Shown: positions 4,817 to 8,773 of the stretch, one piece after another
How the letters are laid out: every line of letters begins with the position of its first letter
Numbering within the stretch: the stretch's first letter is position 1
IMG/VR virus record: IMGVR_UViG_3300034082_000804
Location: 55,874 to 75,873 of that record
DNA length: 20,000 nt
DNA from: an uncultured virus (IMG/VR IMGVR_UViG_3300034082_000804)
Lineage: Duplodnaviria; Heunggongvirae; Uroviricota; Caudoviricetes
Reading direction: 5' to 3' (one strand)
Translations under genes and position numbers: made by a program
Notes under the pieces: generated by a model
Seen by the model: the letters and a program-made list of their open reading frames with translations, nothing else
What the model was told of the DNA's origin: nothing
Databases searched by the model: none

Positions 4817-5335
4817 ATGAGAGTTATCTCAAAAGTAATAACCTGGGCAATAATGTCCTTATGTGTAATATCAAGTAGTATAGCGCAGGCGAATGACAAA
4901 ACAAAAGAAAGCCAGCAGGTTATGTGCCTAGCACAGAATATCTATTATGAAGCTGGACTAGAATCATTTCAAGGAAAGGTTGCTGTGGCACAGGTTACAA
5001 TCAACCGCGCTGAAAGTAGGAACTTTCCCAAAACTATCTGTGGAGTTGTACATCAACGCACAGAGATCGCAGGTCGCATGATCTGTCAATTTAGCTGGAC
5101 ATGTAACCCAGTGAGTAAGATTAAGTATGTAAGTGATAGCTGGCAGGATAGTTTGCTAGTGGCACGTGCTACACTACATCATAATCTAAAACTAGATCAA
5201 CTCGATGACGCATTGTATTTTCACAATACACATGTTAATCCAAATTGGGGTCTAGAGCGTGTTGCCCGTATAGGTGGCCACATTTTCTACAGTAACGACC
5301 CTGCTCCAAGAAAAAATAAATCAAAAAACAGTTGA
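4817..5335 (+). CDS. Cell wall hydrolase, SleB/CwlJ family (Hydrolase_2) with N-terminal signal/anchor
   Basis: CLAQNIYYEA (catalytic Glu), GKVAVAQVTINR, FPKTICGVVHQ, CQFSW, ALYFH...PNW...IGGHIFY. Strong RBS AAGGAGGT. Confidence 0.92.
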   Translation: MRVISKVITWAIMSLCVISSSIAQANDKTKESQQVMCLAQNIYYEAGLESFQGKVAVAQVTINRAESRNFPKTICGVVHQRTEIAGRMICQFSWTCNPVSKIKYVSDSWQDSLLVARATLHHNLKLDQLDDALYFHNTHVNPNWGLERVARIGGHIFYSNDPAPRKNKSKNS

Positions 5336-5360
5336 CAATCTCGTTGCGTGGCTATATAAT
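5332..5360 (+). promoter_or_regulatory. Consensus sigma70 promoter (early)
   Basis: TTGACA 5332-5337, 17-nt spacer, TATAAT 5355-5360. Confidence 0.9.
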
Positions 5361-5366
5361 TACACT

Positions 5367-5582
5367 ATGAAACTAATTTATATAGCCACAGCAATGACAC
5401 AAAACGGTGATAGCATACAAGAGAATGCCTACACTAATGCCGAACAAGCACTAGTACAAGCAACTTTAATGTGTGAAGACATCAACCGTAATACAGACCT
5501 TAACGCACAACCAGACGTAGTTCCGATGGAATTATTTGAAGATGGTGATGTAGTATCGGATACTATTTCAACTGATGAGTAA
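5367..5582 (+). CDS. Small acidic hypothetical protein, probably leaderless
   Basis: ATG 5367 (MKLIYIATAM) lies 6 nt after the -10 box. The track start at 5274 overlaps the SleB gene and the promoter. Confidence 0.65.
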   Translation: MKLIYIATAMTQNGDSIQENAYTNAEQALVQATLMCEDINRNTDLNAQPDVVPMELFEDGDVVSDTISTDE

Positions 5583-5904
5583 TTTCGAAGACTCAAACTG
5601 GGGTCGGCACGGTAATCCAAATCCTGAATGGTGGTATCGTTACCCACGAGGTAGACGCGACCTACCATCAATATTCAGTCAAGATCCAGTAGATCCTACC
5701 TGGGACTTCTTAGACGGATTTGTAGACGACACACCCAAAGTTAGCCTGTTTACTATTGTGCTGATCCTAGTGGTTATTCTACTAGCATCTGGACTTAGTA
5801 TCACTGTTCGTGAACTGCTATATCAAGGCTTTGACTTTGCTCAAATTTGGTACAGCGGCGTAGATAGTATGCTAGACACATTCAATGTTCCAAAAGCGCC
5901 GTAA
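5575..5904 (+). CDS. Hypothetical single-pass membrane protein
   Basis: Overlaps the previous stop; hydrophobic segment LFTIVLILVVILLASGLSITV. Confidence 0.65.
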   Translation: MSNFEDSNWGRHGNPNPEWWYRYPRGRRDLPSIFSQDPVDPTWDFLDGFVDDTPKVSLFTIVLILVVILLASGLSITVRELLYQGFDFAQIWYSGVDSMLDTFNVPKAP

Positions 5905-5957
5905 CCGATAAATATTGTTTTAAGCGACACAATCGCAAACTTTAGAAAGGGCACAAA

Positions 5958-6104
5958 ATGTCAATAACTACAGAAGTAAAATTACCAAAAGAATCACTAG
6001 TTGAATCCAATTTACCAACCGGTACGGAAATTCCAAATGTCTGCCAGCCAGGCGATAAAGAATGTATAGCACGATTAGTACAGGCATTTTCAGACTGCGA
6101 TTAA
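5958..6104 (+). CDS. 48-aa hypothetical protein (not in ORF track)
   Basis: GAAAGGG RBS and upstream ATAAATA at 5908-5914. Sequence MSITTEVKLPKESLVESNLPTGTEIPNVCQPGDKECIARLVQAFSDCD*. Confidence 0.6.
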   Translation: MSITTEVKLPKESLVESNLPTGTEIPNVCQPGDKECIARLVQAFSDCD

Positions 6105-6111
6105 ATAACGG

Positions 6112-6140
6112 TTGACAACCCAACCAAAATAGCGTATAAT
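6112..6140 (+). promoter_or_regulatory. Consensus sigma70 promoter (early)
   Basis: TTGACA 6112-6117, 17 nt, TATAAT 6135-6140. Confidence 0.9.
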
Positions 6141-6172
6141 AGCACTTGTTTAGTTAATAAGGAGTGCGAATT

Positions 6173-6373
6173 ATGGGCTATGTAGTTTTTCAAAACGGCA
6201 AAGAATATGGCGCTCGTAAAGGCCTAGAAGGTCCATTCCATTATCCTAACGGTCGTGTATTGTACTACGATGCTCAAGCAGGCGAGTACTATGATCCTAC
6301 AACAGACTTCTACGTACCCAGCGATGAAGTAGCAGAACTCCAGCAATCAGTTTTTACTCAATTAGCACAATAG
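6173..6373 (+). CDS. Small hypothetical phage protein
   Basis: AAGGAG 6159-6164 favours ATG 6173. GLEGPFHYPNGRVLYYD...YYDPTTDFYV aromatic-rich domain. Confidence 0.8.
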   Translation: MGYVVFQNGKEYGARKGLEGPFHYPNGRVLYYDAQAGEYYDPTTDFYVPSDEVAELQQSVFTQLAQ

Positions 6374-6382
6374 GAGCACGAC

Positions 6383-6556
6383 ATGGCAGGCAAAGCAACT
6401 TCGGTATATCTTACAGTATCAATTAAAGAAACACACAAAACAGCTTTTCATAAACAATTCTTCAACATGACTGGTCTTAATCAGTATGTTGCTACAGATG
6501 AGTTTAAGGAAAAATACCCAACTACTGAATTTTACGTTACGAAAGAAACATACTAA
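6383..6556 (+). CDS. 57-aa hypothetical protein (not in ORF track)
   Basis: TAGGAG RBS at 6371-6376. MAGKATSVYLTVS...FYVTKETY*. Stop overlaps the next ATG (TAATG). Confidence 0.8.
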   Translation: MAGKATSVYLTVSIKETHKTAFHKQFFNMTGLNQYVATDEFKEKYPTTEFYVTKETY

Positions 6557-6783
6557 TGGCCATAGAGGTCATACGTGAAGTAACAGAATGGGTAGTTGAT
6601 TTCCGACAGCCAAATCATACATATTTGATGGACGGTGAAAAGGTTATTGGCTACCAACAATGGCACGAAGGCCCGCCAATCTACTTTGCCCGCAAGGGCA
6701 AGTTTGATAAAGCCAGACGTAAATTCATCAAAATTCCCCTGAAAGAAAGTGTGTTTAAAACGGTTGACATTTTGGTTAAATGA
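6556..6783 (+). CDS. Small hypothetical phage protein
   Basis: Coupled to the previous ORF; PNHTYLMDG motif. The 3' end runs through the next promoter. Confidence 0.75.
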   Translation: MAIEVIREVTEWVVDFRQPNHTYLMDGEKVIGYQQWHEGPPIYFARKGKFDKARRKFIKIPLKESVFKTVDILVK

Positions 6784-6820
6784 CTGTATAATGCTATACA
6801 TACACTAACAACACGGAGCA
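6762..6820 (+). repeat. ~60-bp promoter+leader+RBS direct repeat, copy 1 (copy 2 at 7267-7326)
   Basis: 34-nt identical core TGACTGTATAATGCTATACATACACTAACAACAC at 6781-6814 and 7286-7319, plus shared GGTTGAC, TTTTGGTTAAAT and GGAGCA. Confidence 0.95.
6764..6792 (+). promoter_or_regulatory. Consensus sigma70 promoter (early), repeat copy A
   Basis: TTGACA 6764-6769, 17 nt, TATAAT 6787-6792. Confidence 0.9.
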
Positions 6821-6824
6821 ACTA

Positions 6825-7112
6825 ATGAAAAATCTAGCACAATACATTGAACAGAAAAATGCTTGGGCACGTATTTTCAATAATGTGATCTATGATGTTA
6901 ATAACTTATCAGAACGTGATTGTCAAAATTTGTATGATAGTTTAGACAACGATCTAAGCCCAGAGAACTTAACCTGCGACGGTGAACGTAGCGGTGGACA
7001 AGTTCGTCAATTCGCACGTTTTTACAATGCGGCAGCAAAAGAGTTAGTTACAATTATTCGTGCTAACAACTACACAATTCCATACTCAGATTTCCGCGAA
7101 CTTAGTTACTAA
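6825..7112 (+). CDS. Hypothetical early phage protein
   Basis: GGAG RBS and its own promoter; LSPENLTCDGE motif. Confidence 0.85.
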   Translation: MKNLAQYIEQKNAWARIFNNVIYDVNNLSERDCQNLYDSLDNDLSPENLTCDGERSGGQVRQFARFYNAAAKELVTIIRANNYTIPYSDFRELSY

Positions 7113-7117
7113 ATCGG

Positions 7118-7146
7118 TTGACAACCTACCCAAATGATAGTATAAT
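7118..7146 (+). promoter_or_regulatory. Consensus sigma70 promoter with no conventional downstream ORF
   Basis: TTGACA 7118-7123, 17 nt, TATAAT 7141-7146. Flanks resemble the 6112 promoter (GGTTGACAACC...GTATAATAGCA). Confidence 0.88.
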
Positions 7147-7151
7147 AGCAT

Positions 7152-7262
7152 TTGACAGTTAGGAAACGATTTCAAAGTTTTAGGGTGTTGTTACATTTTA
7201 ATTTTATTAACGTTACTACTAAGGGTTGTTCCGGTCGTAACAACATCCTAAATTCCCTTAAA
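7152..7262 (+). ncRNA. Candidate structured small RNA or long structured leader
   Basis: Dedicated promoter and no ATG-initiated ORF. 16-bp stem 7179-7194/7237-7252 (one G-U). Loop TAAGGG 7220-7225 is complementary to CCCTTA 7255-7260. Confidence 0.5.
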
Positions 7263-7266
7263 TAAT

Positions 7267-7326
7267 GGTTGACTTTTGGTTAAATTGACTGTATAATGCT
7301 ATACATACACTAACAACACAGGAGCA
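7267..7326 (+). repeat. Promoter+leader+RBS direct repeat, copy 2 (sigma70 promoter TTGACT 7269-7274 / TATAAT 7292-7297)
   Basis: Near-identical to 6762-6820; 17-nt spacer. Confidence 0.95.
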
Positions 7327-7330
7327 CAAA

Positions 7331-7651
7331 ATGGACTTTCAAGCTATTCACAACGAAGCACAAACAGCAGCAACTAACGCTCAAAACGCATTTCTTAAAC
7401 AACACGGCGAAATAGCCTACTGTGGTTTTGCCTGGGTTAATGTGTACGTAGATCGTACTAACTCAACAGAAGCTAAAGGCTTACTTGCTGTTGGTTTTAA
7501 GAAAGATTATCGTCCTAAATGTTTAAACATGTGGAGTCCAGGTAACTACCATGGTCAAAGCATGGATGTGTTAGAAGAAGGTGCTCGTGCTTACGCAGAC
7601 GTACTTACTAAACACGGGTTCCGTGCTTATGCTGGTTCACGTGCTGACTAA
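7331..7651 (+). CDS. Hypothetical early phage protein
   Basis: AGGAG RBS and its own promoter; YCGFAWV...GQSMD..E.GA.AYA..L...G..AYAGSRAD pattern. Confidence 0.85.
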   Translation: MDFQAIHNEAQTAATNAQNAFLKQHGEIAYCGFAWVNVYVDRTNSTEAKGLLAVGFKKDYRPKCLNMWSPGNYHGQSMDVLEEGARAYADVLTKHGFRAYAGSRAD

Positions 7652-7658
7652 AAAGTAC

Positions 7659-7687
7659 TTGACAAACACCCAAAGAGGTGTTATAAT
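7659..7687 (+). promoter_or_regulatory. Consensus sigma70 promoter for the AAA ATPase, with a dyad in the spacer
   Basis: TTGACA 7659-7664, 17 nt, TATAAT 7682-7687; AACACC-N6-GGTGTT at 7665-7682. Confidence 0.9.
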
Positions 7688-7750
7688 ACTACAATAATAA
7701 GAAAGCGACAAACGCTTCGATTATAAAACGAAAACTAAGGAGCATAGACA

Positions 7751-8773
7751 ATGACAGGTTTTGTTAAAATTAAAAATGGTACTTATCGTAATCAAGCGAT
7801 TACAGATGAAGTATTTCCTCTAGTAAAACAATTTCAATTAGGTAGCAAAGGTGGTTTTATCACTGTAGACGGCACTGGTCGTTTTGGCAAGGATAAAATA
7901 CGTGTTACTATCTCTAGTCCTACAGAGTACGAACTAGTAGACGCAACAGAATACACAGGCGAAGTAGCTACAGCAGGTGTAGACACACATAGCAAGCAAA
8001 CAGACGAAGAACGTATTGCTGAAATTGGCTTACGTTTTGAAATGCTAGACGAAATGACCAAAGCAGTATTGAACGGTGACATTCGTGCTATGATTGTAAG
8101 TGGCCCTCCGGGTGTTGGTAAAAGTTACACAGTAGAAAATCAAATTGACCGTGCTAACTTGTTTCAAAACATTGCCAACGCAAAACCTAAACACACTGTG
8201 GTTAAAGGTAGTGCTAGTGCTATTGGTTTGTACAAAGTATTGTACGAATACAGTGACGCTAACAGCGTTATTGTGTTTGATGACTGCGATAGCATCTTGT
8301 TTGACGACGTTAGTTTGAACTTGCTTAAAGGCGCATTGGACAGTGGTAAGTCACGTAAAATTAGTTGGTTGTCGGAGTCACGTGTATTGAAACAAGAAGA
8401 CATTCCTAACAGTTTCCAATTTAAAGGTAGTGTAATTTTTATCACTAACTTAAAGTTTGATCAAGTTAAGTCAACTCGTTTGAAAGATCACTTAGAAGCA
8501 CTACAGTCACGCTGTCACTATTTAGATTTGACGTTAGACACTATGCGTGATAAAGTATTGCGTATTAGACAAATTGCTAAAACTGGTCAATTGTTTGAAG
8601 ACATGGGCATTGGCGAAATTGGACAAGATATTATTATCGATTTCTTAGACGCTAACAAGAACAAGTTCCGTGAAATGAGTTTGCGTATGGCAATCAAAGT
8701 AGCACAGTTATACAAGAGCTTTCCTAACACTTGGGAAAACATGGCTAAGACAACTTGTATGAAGATTGCGTAA
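7751..8773 (+). CDS. AAA+ family ATPase
   Basis: Walker A GPPGVGKS, Walker B VIVFDDCD, sensor-1 IFITN, ALQSRC arginine-finger motif; AAGGAG RBS. Confidence 0.88.
   Translation: MTGFVKIKNGTYRNQAITDEVFPLVKQFQLGSKGGFITVDGTGRFGKDKIRVTISSPTEYELVDATEYTGEVATAGVDTHSKQTDEERIAEIGLRFEMLDEMTKAVLNGDIRAMIVSGPPGVGKSYTVENQIDRANLFQNIANAKPKHTVVKGSASAIGLYKVLYEYSDANSVIVFDDCDSILFDDVSLNLLKGALDSGKSRKISWLSESRVLKQEDIPNSFQFKGSVIFITNLKFDQVKSTRLKDHLEALQSRCHYLDLTLDTMRDKVLRIRQIAKTGQLFEDMGIGEIGQDIIIDFLDANKNKFREMSLRMAIKVAQLYKSFPNTWENMAKTTCMKIA

Follow-up and report, generated by a model that had tools for sequence, protein, structure and literature searches.

In T4-type phages, the cassettes known as PeSL, in which strong sigma-70 promoters are combined with stem-loops, mediate the modular shuffling of ORFans, according to the portions of PMC2839356 (Arbiol et al. 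2010) and PMC4122927 (Comeau et al. 2014) that deal with them. The 3' end of a PeSL provides the Shine-Dalgarno sequence and start codon of an open reading frame (ORF), and the stem-loops, as characterised in that portion of PMC2839356, are short, G+C-rich terminators or attenuators situated within or beside the promoter. Non-coding cargo is nowhere mentioned in PMC2839356, as judged by a word search. Promoter-proximal RNAs without an ORF are already on record from virulent and jumbo phages in the part of PMC10914365 used here, and for phage PhiTE an excerpt of PMC3475682 describes pseudo-ToxI, an RNA which imitates a type III antitoxin and in this way neutralises a defence of the host. Here we describe a window of 20,000 nucleotides (positions 55,874 to 75,873 of IMG/VR record IMGVR_UViG_3300034082_000804, an uncultured virus) in which a consensus promoter beginning at position 7118 is followed by a cargo that holds a long hairpin and no ATG-initiated ORF. 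We refer to this cargo as the element.

The explanation that we favour, at roughly even confidence, is that the element is a non-coding mobile cassette with a hairpin RNA as its product, an ORF-less member of a PeSL-like array. Its promoter matches the consensus, it has no conserved ORF, its helix is preserved in six haplotypes, it is mobile, and its presence is optional; these points are established. A first-pass annotation, made from the letters of the window, had read the cargo as a structured RNA with a possible pseudoknot and a possible likeness to antitoxins or CRISPR repeats. The non-coding character and the long helix, apparently conserved on the transcribed strand, have stood; the pseudoknot and the antitoxin likeness are unsupported, and no CRISPR-repeat likeness emerged from one narrow scan.

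The promoter array and its ORF-less cargo

The region from 5300 to 7750 is a row of units, each consisting of a consensus promoter, a short conserved leader and a small ORF. Five promoters in the window match the sigma-70 consensus at 12 of 12 positions and a sixth, at 7269, at 11 of 12; all lie on the + strand, and together they span 5332 to 7687. Promoter-plus-leader sequences recur within the window at 83-89% identity, and the promoter at 7118 is 83% like the one at 6109-6148. It had been proposed that the 7118 promoter differs from its neighbours in lacking an ATG ORF, and this is borne out: the other promoters of the array are followed by ATG ORFs, which encode 66, 95, 106 and 340 amino acids (aa), and the 7118 promoter is followed by 117 nt free of ATG (7147-7263), the first ATG standing at 7264. 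The promoter itself, both stem arms and the 42-nt loop also lie exactly where they had been placed. Most of the small array ORFs have no family in a PHROG scan. The coordinates of the element and of related features are collected in Table 1.

Table 1. Features of the element, its surroundings and the other ORF-less cargos.
Feature	Coordinates	Strand	Remarks
Sigma-70 promoter	7118..7146	+	TTGACA, 17-nt spacer, TATAAT; 12/12 consensus matches
Cargo start and 25-nt unpaired leader	7147..7178	+	start site predicted near 7153-7155
Helix, 5' arm	7179..7194	+	16 nt
Loop, 42 nt	7195..7236	+	AU-rich half and GC-richer half
Helix, 3' arm	7237..7252	+	16 nt
Short tail, right boundary of mobile unit	7253..7260	+	haplotypes diverge from about 7259
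Promoter of next cassette (106-aa gene)	7269..7297	+	context, outside the mobile unit; replaced by the AAA ATPase promoter in four haplotypes
Other ORF-less cargo	L067:4148-4297		more distant relative
Other ORF-less cargo	L100:2221-2370		more distant relative
Other ORF-less cargo	L105:4526-4597		more distant relative
Other ORF-less cargo	L097:1024-1173	-	more distant relative

The start site is predicted from the usual distance of 7 +/- 1 nt to a -10 box and from the leaderless ATGs that lie 6-7 nt past other -10 boxes, as at the 5332 promoter, where the ATG stands 6 nt past the box. The first ~16 nt of the cargo resemble the leader of the coding cassettes (AGCAYTTG..AGTTA); compared with those leaders, the Shine-Dalgarno sequence is shortened and the start codon is missing. 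The unit is probably descended from a coding cassette.

The two arms of the helix are 94% complementary and form 15 Watson-Crick pairs and one G.T. Folded alone (7174-7258), the + strand hairpin reaches -21.4 kcal/mol (z = -3.32) and is matched by none of 200 shuffles. For the - strand z is -1.59, and 14 of 200 shuffles do equally well; the whole 119-nt stretch gives only z = -1.20 (21 of 200). Stems of at least 16 consecutive pairs number six in the complete 75.9-kb record, this one included, in a count made without a shuffle control. The hairpin sits 32 nt past the -10 box, has no U-run, and is followed by AAAUUCCCUUAAAU. It is not among the 23 terminator-like sites of a scan for intrinsic terminators, and none of these sites lies between 7118 and 11100. 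A 5' mini-hairpin in the whole-stretch fold (7151-7155 with 7172-7176) was rejected, being broken by A7175C in four of five haplotypes.

Two short complementarities were seen within the hairpin. Positions 7185-7193 of the 5' arm are complementary over 9 nt to UAACAACAC at 6806-6814 and 7311-7319; this is the conserved leader of two neighbouring cassettes, just 5' of the Shine-Dalgarno sequence, and the 3' arm resembles it. Positions 7196-7206 of the AU-rich loop are complementary over 11 nt, A and T only, to codons 5-8 of the AAA ATPase gene (7765-7775). Both matches are within chance by shuffles.

Conservation of the helix among six haplotypes

Three independent probes, drawn from the 5' leader, the AU-rich loop and the GC-rich loop, recover the same six IMG/VR contigs, and one metagenome scan yielded three additional copies of the element. 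The copies fall into six haplotypes: the window type, which has four further identical contigs, and those of L034, L217, L310, L314 and L317, the last partial. A search with the 14-mer TAGGGTGTTGTTAC matched 101 viral stretches, which besides true copies are chance matches seeded by the forced 14-mer.

The six haplotypes differ at seven sites within the 112 nt from 7147 to 7258. Three substitutions affect the stem, all of them preserve pairing, and the 16 pairs are paired in every cell of the alignment. At 7188-7243, two haplotypes have U-A, two have U.G and one has C-G; at 7185-7246, four have G.U and one has G-C. Beyond a U.U mismatch below the stem, a T or C at 7254 shifts the optional pair with G7177 from G.U (two haplotypes) to G-C (three). 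Both wobble states within the stem pair only on the + strand, which is the strand transcribed from the promoter. The chance that three of three stem substitutions would preserve the pair is 0.006-0.044, depending on the transition bias. The 42-nt loop is identical in all six haplotypes; this is partly artefactual, since the search pattern that retrieved three of them already prescribed 18 of the 42 nt. That selection maintains the helix of the + strand RNA is weakly shown.

The short motifs on which further structure had been built are all in place (TAAGGG at 7220-7225, CCCTTA at 7255-7260, GTTGTT at 7225-7230, AACAAC at 7239-7244, and a stretch opening with GTTTTAG and closing with AAC at 7177-7211). 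The pseudoknot between 7220-7225 and 7255-7260 was nevertheless discarded as unsupported. Only 88.9% of its cells are paired, and two of its six pairs fail in some haplotypes (7221-7259 in three of six, 7220-7260 in one of six). Its 3' strand also lies on the recombination boundary of the cassette.

Mobility of the unit

The cargo has at least four different left neighbours and two different right neighbours. The 95-aa gene stands to the left in both the window type and L034; to the right lies the promoter of the 106-aa gene in the former and the AAA-gene promoter in the latter. The AAA-gene promoter also follows the cargo in L217, after an unrelated ORF; in L310, where the left side has no + strand ORF and a 75-aa ORF on the opposite strand; and in L317, which begins at the contig end. 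In L314 a homologue of the window's 75-aa gene (6556-6783) precedes the cargo, and a promoter of the 106-aa-gene type follows it. Four of the six haplotypes thus have the AAA gene directly downstream of the element. L310 and L314 carry the -35 box and spacer of another promoter type, joined to the cargo at the -10 box, which places the conserved unit between ~7141-7147 and ~7258.

Relatives found through the flanking proteins carry the same ORFs behind different neighbours, with junctions always in the promoter region. The unit moves between phages through recombination inside these conserved promoters. The cargo is 95.5-98.2% identical between haplotypes and the adjacent AAA gene 74.7-91.0%, and the two are uncoupled, as in L310 (cargo 98.2%, AAA gene 74.7%). 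The mismatch suggests lateral exchange of the unit, strong constraint, or both.

Coding potential

A 37-codon frame with a TTG start (7152-7265, + strand) had been put forward as an alternative product. The frame exists, and its start lies at or before the first base predicted to be transcribed, with no Shine-Dalgarno sequence ahead of it. Conserved coding was not found across the haplotypes: the start reads TTA in L314, four of the six variable codons are non-synonymous and two synonymous, and the stop lies beyond the conserved unit, so that the frame runs on in other haplotypes. It has no PHROG match, and we rejected it as a gene on account of the lost start, the non-synonymous changes and the external stop.

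On the - strand, a 24-codon ATG frame runs from 7246 down to 7172, with a purine-rich AAGGGA shortly upstream of its start. By hand count it has two synonymous changes, one non-synonymous change and a change of the start from ATG to GTG; over the whole 112 nt the same frame has three synonymous and three non-synonymous variable codons. It has no promoter of its own, and its upstream sequence varies from haplotype to haplotype. Synonymous changes are in excess in no frame of either strand, and most frames contain stops.

Beyond the first ~16 nt, tblastx and nhmmer searches of ~0.96 Mb of related loci and the 75.9-kb record found no homology of the cargo to genes. The element's own copies were recovered, and the remaining matches were at chance level (E of 0.78 or worse).

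Comparison with catalogued RNA classes

Rfam has 0 matches in the window at the gathering threshold, so that the family search suggested by the first-pass annotation returned nothing for the element, and ARAGORN reports 0 genes. With E relaxed to 10, the only Rfam match is MIR478, a plant microRNA (E = 7.3, 14.5 bits against a threshold of 50). Likeness to type III antitoxins finds no support in this result or in a search for tandem repeats: Tandem Repeats Finder gives 0 rows for 7000-7400 at a minimum score of 30, and the element contains no direct repeat.

For CRISPR repeats, we searched one genome from each of 185,579 species for GTTTTAGGGTG occurring twice at array spacing. The sequence is the first 11 nt of the repeat-like stretch of the element, and the scan excludes only repeats that share these 11 bases. 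It returned 31 prokaryotic loci, in which 14-22 of 36 positions match the element, the 11 forced ones included. Two loci (L346 and L348) with regular spacing (periods of 66 and 70) resembled real arrays and reach 22 of 36. Within this narrow and non-exhaustive scan, none of the 31 loci is like the element beyond the forced 11 nt, and the suggested repeat likeness gains no support from it. A PHROG scan of 33 ORFs contained no CRISPR-associated names. A consensus promoter lies within 250 bp upstream of the element, as with viral solitary repeat units.

A k-mer scan of the 75.9-kb record examined possible targets. The longest complementarity of the element to the + strand is 13 nt, inside a long ORF, and 42 of 200 shuffles reach at least 13.

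Evidence for expression

RNA-library contigs from two studies, labelled freshwater and lake water, cover the element. Contig X2 spans 7165-7315 with 0 differences, and contig X4 spans 7132-7258 with four. The bridging of X2 into the next cassette fits the lack of a terminator between 7118 and 11100. Without a terminator, a transcript from the 7118 promoter should read into the next cassette unless it is processed, and the earlier idea of an early small RNA finds no support as far as a discrete molecule is concerned. The richest run, X1, has no cover at 7164-7260; the lack of cover in X1 and X3 was not counted against expression. A 428-nt contig from X1 joins 7124 directly to 7750, the junction also seen in the close relatives that lack the unit, and is a co-occurring variant without the cassettes of the element and of the 106-aa gene. 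Expression of the element is plausible.

Phage and genomic setting

The window is the terminal stretch of a record of 75,873 bases, for which CheckV estimates a completeness of 22%; the implied genome is therefore roughly 340 kb. Homologues of the record's genes occur in related records of 299-367 kb, one of which has terminal repeats and is rated 100% complete. The source is an uncultured freshwater jumbo phage. PHROG scans identify a helicase, pieces of a DNA polymerase, an endolysin and the AAA ATPase. The last of these shares 41% identity with a protein from PA5oct-like Pseudomonas jumbo phages and has weak PHROG matches to clamp-loader and DnaC-like helicase-loader families. Named phages show only distant protein likeness to this phage, and megablast and blastn gave no DNA-level match between GenBank phages and positions 6500-8000 of the window.

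Three features of the promoters themselves were recorded in passing. The AAA-gene promoter (7659-7687) carries a 6-bp inverted repeat, AACACC / GGTGTT, between its boxes and overlapping the -10 box. Leaderless early mRNAs are suggested by ATGs that follow the -10 box by 6-9 nt without a Shine-Dalgarno sequence, in the window at 5332-5370 and at positions 915, 1219 and 36035 of G000:C1 (the coordinates of the 75.9-kb record). At G000:C1:32543-32643, two tandem consensus promoters stand only 43 nt apart with almost no cargo between them.

Outside the window, the record contains 26 clustered transfer RNA (tRNA) genes at L353:1238-5842, L353 being a stretch of the same record (G000:C1:33237-37841). 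At least two of the tRNA clusters lie directly behind consensus promoters of the array type (G000 33581 and 37450). A second long hairpin is found just upstream of the tRNA cluster, at L353:992-1074 (G000:C1:32991-33073). It begins at a TGTTATAAT box, has a 21-bp stem and a 41-nt loop, and folds at -37.2 kcal/mol (z = -4.07, equalled by one of 200 shuffles). Rfam has no match for it, and its sequence is unlike that of the element.

Other promoters without an ORF were sought among 240 distinct consensus promoters in related loci. Eleven have no ATG ORF within 110 nt. The element accounts for three of these, another three show GTG starts on visual inspection, one is ambiguous, and four lead other ORF-less cargos (Table 1). 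Three of these four fold better than shuffles (z of -2.44, -2.34 and -2.31), the fourth has z = -0.78, and none of the four matches Rfam. RNA cargo thus seems to recur as a minority in arrays of this kind.

Weighing the explanations

As we picture it, host sigma-70 RNA polymerase would start near 7153-7155 and transcribe the hairpin, then read on into the next cassette, as the sequence predicts and as contig X2 is consistent with. The cargo would be an RNA of ~105 nt that is essentially one hairpin, with 16 bp, one pair past the U.U mismatch and the 42-nt loop. The unit spreads by recombination inside conserved promoters, like the neighbouring ORFan cassettes, as its contexts show. The hairpin may be cut from the early transcript at its long helix, as a substrate of the RNase III type, and then act in trans; alternatively, it may serve as a processing or stability signal for the early polycistronic RNA. 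We regard a trans-acting RNA or decoy and a cis role in processing, stability or as a leader as equally possible, neither being probable taken singly. The distribution, independent of context and variable between strains like that of accessory early genes, favours a self-contained module, and suggests that the unit is an accessory RNA module of this kind. A bolder version, which we consider unlikely, makes the unit an 'RNA ORFan', a self-contained accessory RNA gene that jumbo phages swap by recombination between promoters, like small anti-host proteins. Its hairpin would be a decoy, titrating, early in infection, a nuclease or an RNA-recognising defence of the host. If that were true, the cargos of L067, L100 and L105 would belong to the same hidden pool of mobile RNA genes in phages.

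The main and serious rival, which we treat as a real though minority possibility, is a neutral relic or passenger: a former ORF cassette whose ribosome-binding site, start codon and gene were lost or replaced, which is still shuffled by recombination between promoters and has no function of its own, and in which the inverted repeat is incidental, arising for instance from an inverted duplication. Several observations weigh against a functional hairpin RNA or speak for a relic. The ~16-nt coding leader looks decayed, its Shine-Dalgarno sequence and ATG gone, as expected of a relic. Close relatives (L031, L032, L033 and L035) lack the unit and have the 95-aa gene directly next to the AAA promoter. 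Cargo divergence is lowest in the haplotype whose AAA gene has diverged most, and the high cargo identity may reflect recent lateral spread and not constraint. Covariation comes down to three substitutions and fails its shuffle control, which is powerless here (the observed values are attained by 304 of 500 shuffles); at such low diversity the covariation is therefore anecdotal. A covariance model of the element found no convincing homologue in five near-complete related jumbo genomes, where two weak matches (E of 0.086 and 0.67 per genome) fall within coding sequence and lack a promoter. No target complementarity in the 75.9-kb record rises above chance, and no discrete small RNA is predicted, for want of a terminator. 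The contigs X2 and X4 have depths of 2 and 3.7, they show neither strand nor ends, and RNA libraries can hold DNA; X4, moreover, begins upstream of the predicted start site. Another promoter, at G000 32543, has only 43 nt behind it. Against a relic stand the three of three pairing-preserving stem substitutions, with the chance values given above, and both wobbles, which fit the transcribed strand. Beyond its leader, the cargo also has no detectable gene homology in the related loci, and the unit has stayed whole in at least five contexts, in phages that differ by up to 25% in the neighbouring gene.

Explanations that dispense with a hairpin RNA of the kind we favour, or assign it a specific mimicry, fare less well. 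A DNA-level element, such as a transcription-primed replication origin, a recombination hotspot or a protein-binding site, would agree with an AT-rich loop between 16-bp inverted repeats and with a position directly 5' of the AAA ATPase gene in four haplotypes and of the helicase and polymerase of the replication module. T4 and T7 have origins that depend on a promoter. We nonetheless consider it quite unlikely: the intermediate states are G.T mismatches, which break DNA symmetry but leave RNA pairing intact on just one of the strands; the same replication genes are present in close relatives that lack the unit; and in the window another cassette intervenes between the element and the AAA gene. 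Slimmer still is the prospect of an RNA mimic directed at host defence, either an anti-CRISPR (a repeat or a repeat:anti-repeat duplex) or an antitoxin mimic that soaks up a nuclease early. The accessory, strain-variable and mobile distribution of the unit recalls anti-defence genes, GTTTTAG opens the 5' arm, whose pairing partner downstream resembles an anti-repeat, and a strong promoter directly upstream with no cas genes nearby is also the setting of viral solitary repeat units in the relevant part of PMC10651486. The 31 scanned loci, however, are unlike the element outside the forced positions, and there is neither a tandem repeat, nor an Rfam match, nor a conserved pseudoknot. Least probable of all is a very small protein from the TTG frame or the minus-strand ATG frame. 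Both frames exist, and the hand count for the latter leans towards synonymous change, but the codon changes, start and stop of the former are as described above, and the latter is promoterless, with variable upstream sequence, in a region where neighbouring genes and strong promoters are all on the + strand.

Implications and comparison with described systems

The variable early regions of large phages are usually read in terms of small proteins for host take-over and counter-defence. Here, recombination between near-identical early promoters shuffles an ORF-less unit as well, and the one feature seen to be conserved in it is an RNA helix. Should the RNA be functional, annotation centred on genes misses part of the accessory cargo, and RNA modules merit screening for anti-defence or regulatory activity beside ORFans. 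If the unit is a relic, it documents the decay of a cassette without purging. Either way, the mapped cassette boundaries provide a clean construct for testing.

The kind of RNA proposed is already known, from ORF-less phage RNAs and from tRNA clusters on promoters of identical type; the RNA itself matches no catalogued family. The RNAs described in the consulted part of PMC10914365 are likewise short, promoter-proximal, ORF-less and outside catalogued families; those candidates have mapped 5' and 3' ends, whereas the element is defined by comparative genomics and mobility. With RNA anti-CRISPRs (Racr), or viral solitary repeat units, as presented in the part of PMC10651486 cited above, it shares the placement of a small non-coding unit directly behind a strong phage promoter with no cas genes nearby. 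It differs from Racr in that likeness to a CRISPR repeat was not found in our one limited scan. ToxI-type antitoxins are tandem repeats of about 36 nt, and the element, in contrast, has no tandem repeat. Processing hairpins for RNase III lie between the early genes of phage T7. Like them, the element would be a long, imperfectly extended double-stranded hairpin in an early transcript read through by the host polymerase; the T7 sites are fixed parts of an operon without a promoter of their own, whereas the element is optional and mobile, has a 42-nt loop, and is only a putative site of cleavage.

The closest comparison is with PeSL. In both systems consensus promoters are repeated through a hyperplastic region of small ORFans, and the order of cassettes is shuffled between close relatives with breakpoints in the conserved promoters. 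The inverted repeat between the boxes of the 7659 promoter also recalls the PeSL layout, as far as the cited portion of PMC2839356 describes it. The differences lie in the cargo, here a hairpin of 74 nt that has a 42-nt loop and lacks both an ORF and a U-tract, and in the carrier, a jumbo phage. The element has neither the terminator-type stem-loop nor the ORF start of a PeSL; it is therefore a relative of these cassettes in behaviour and not one of their members.

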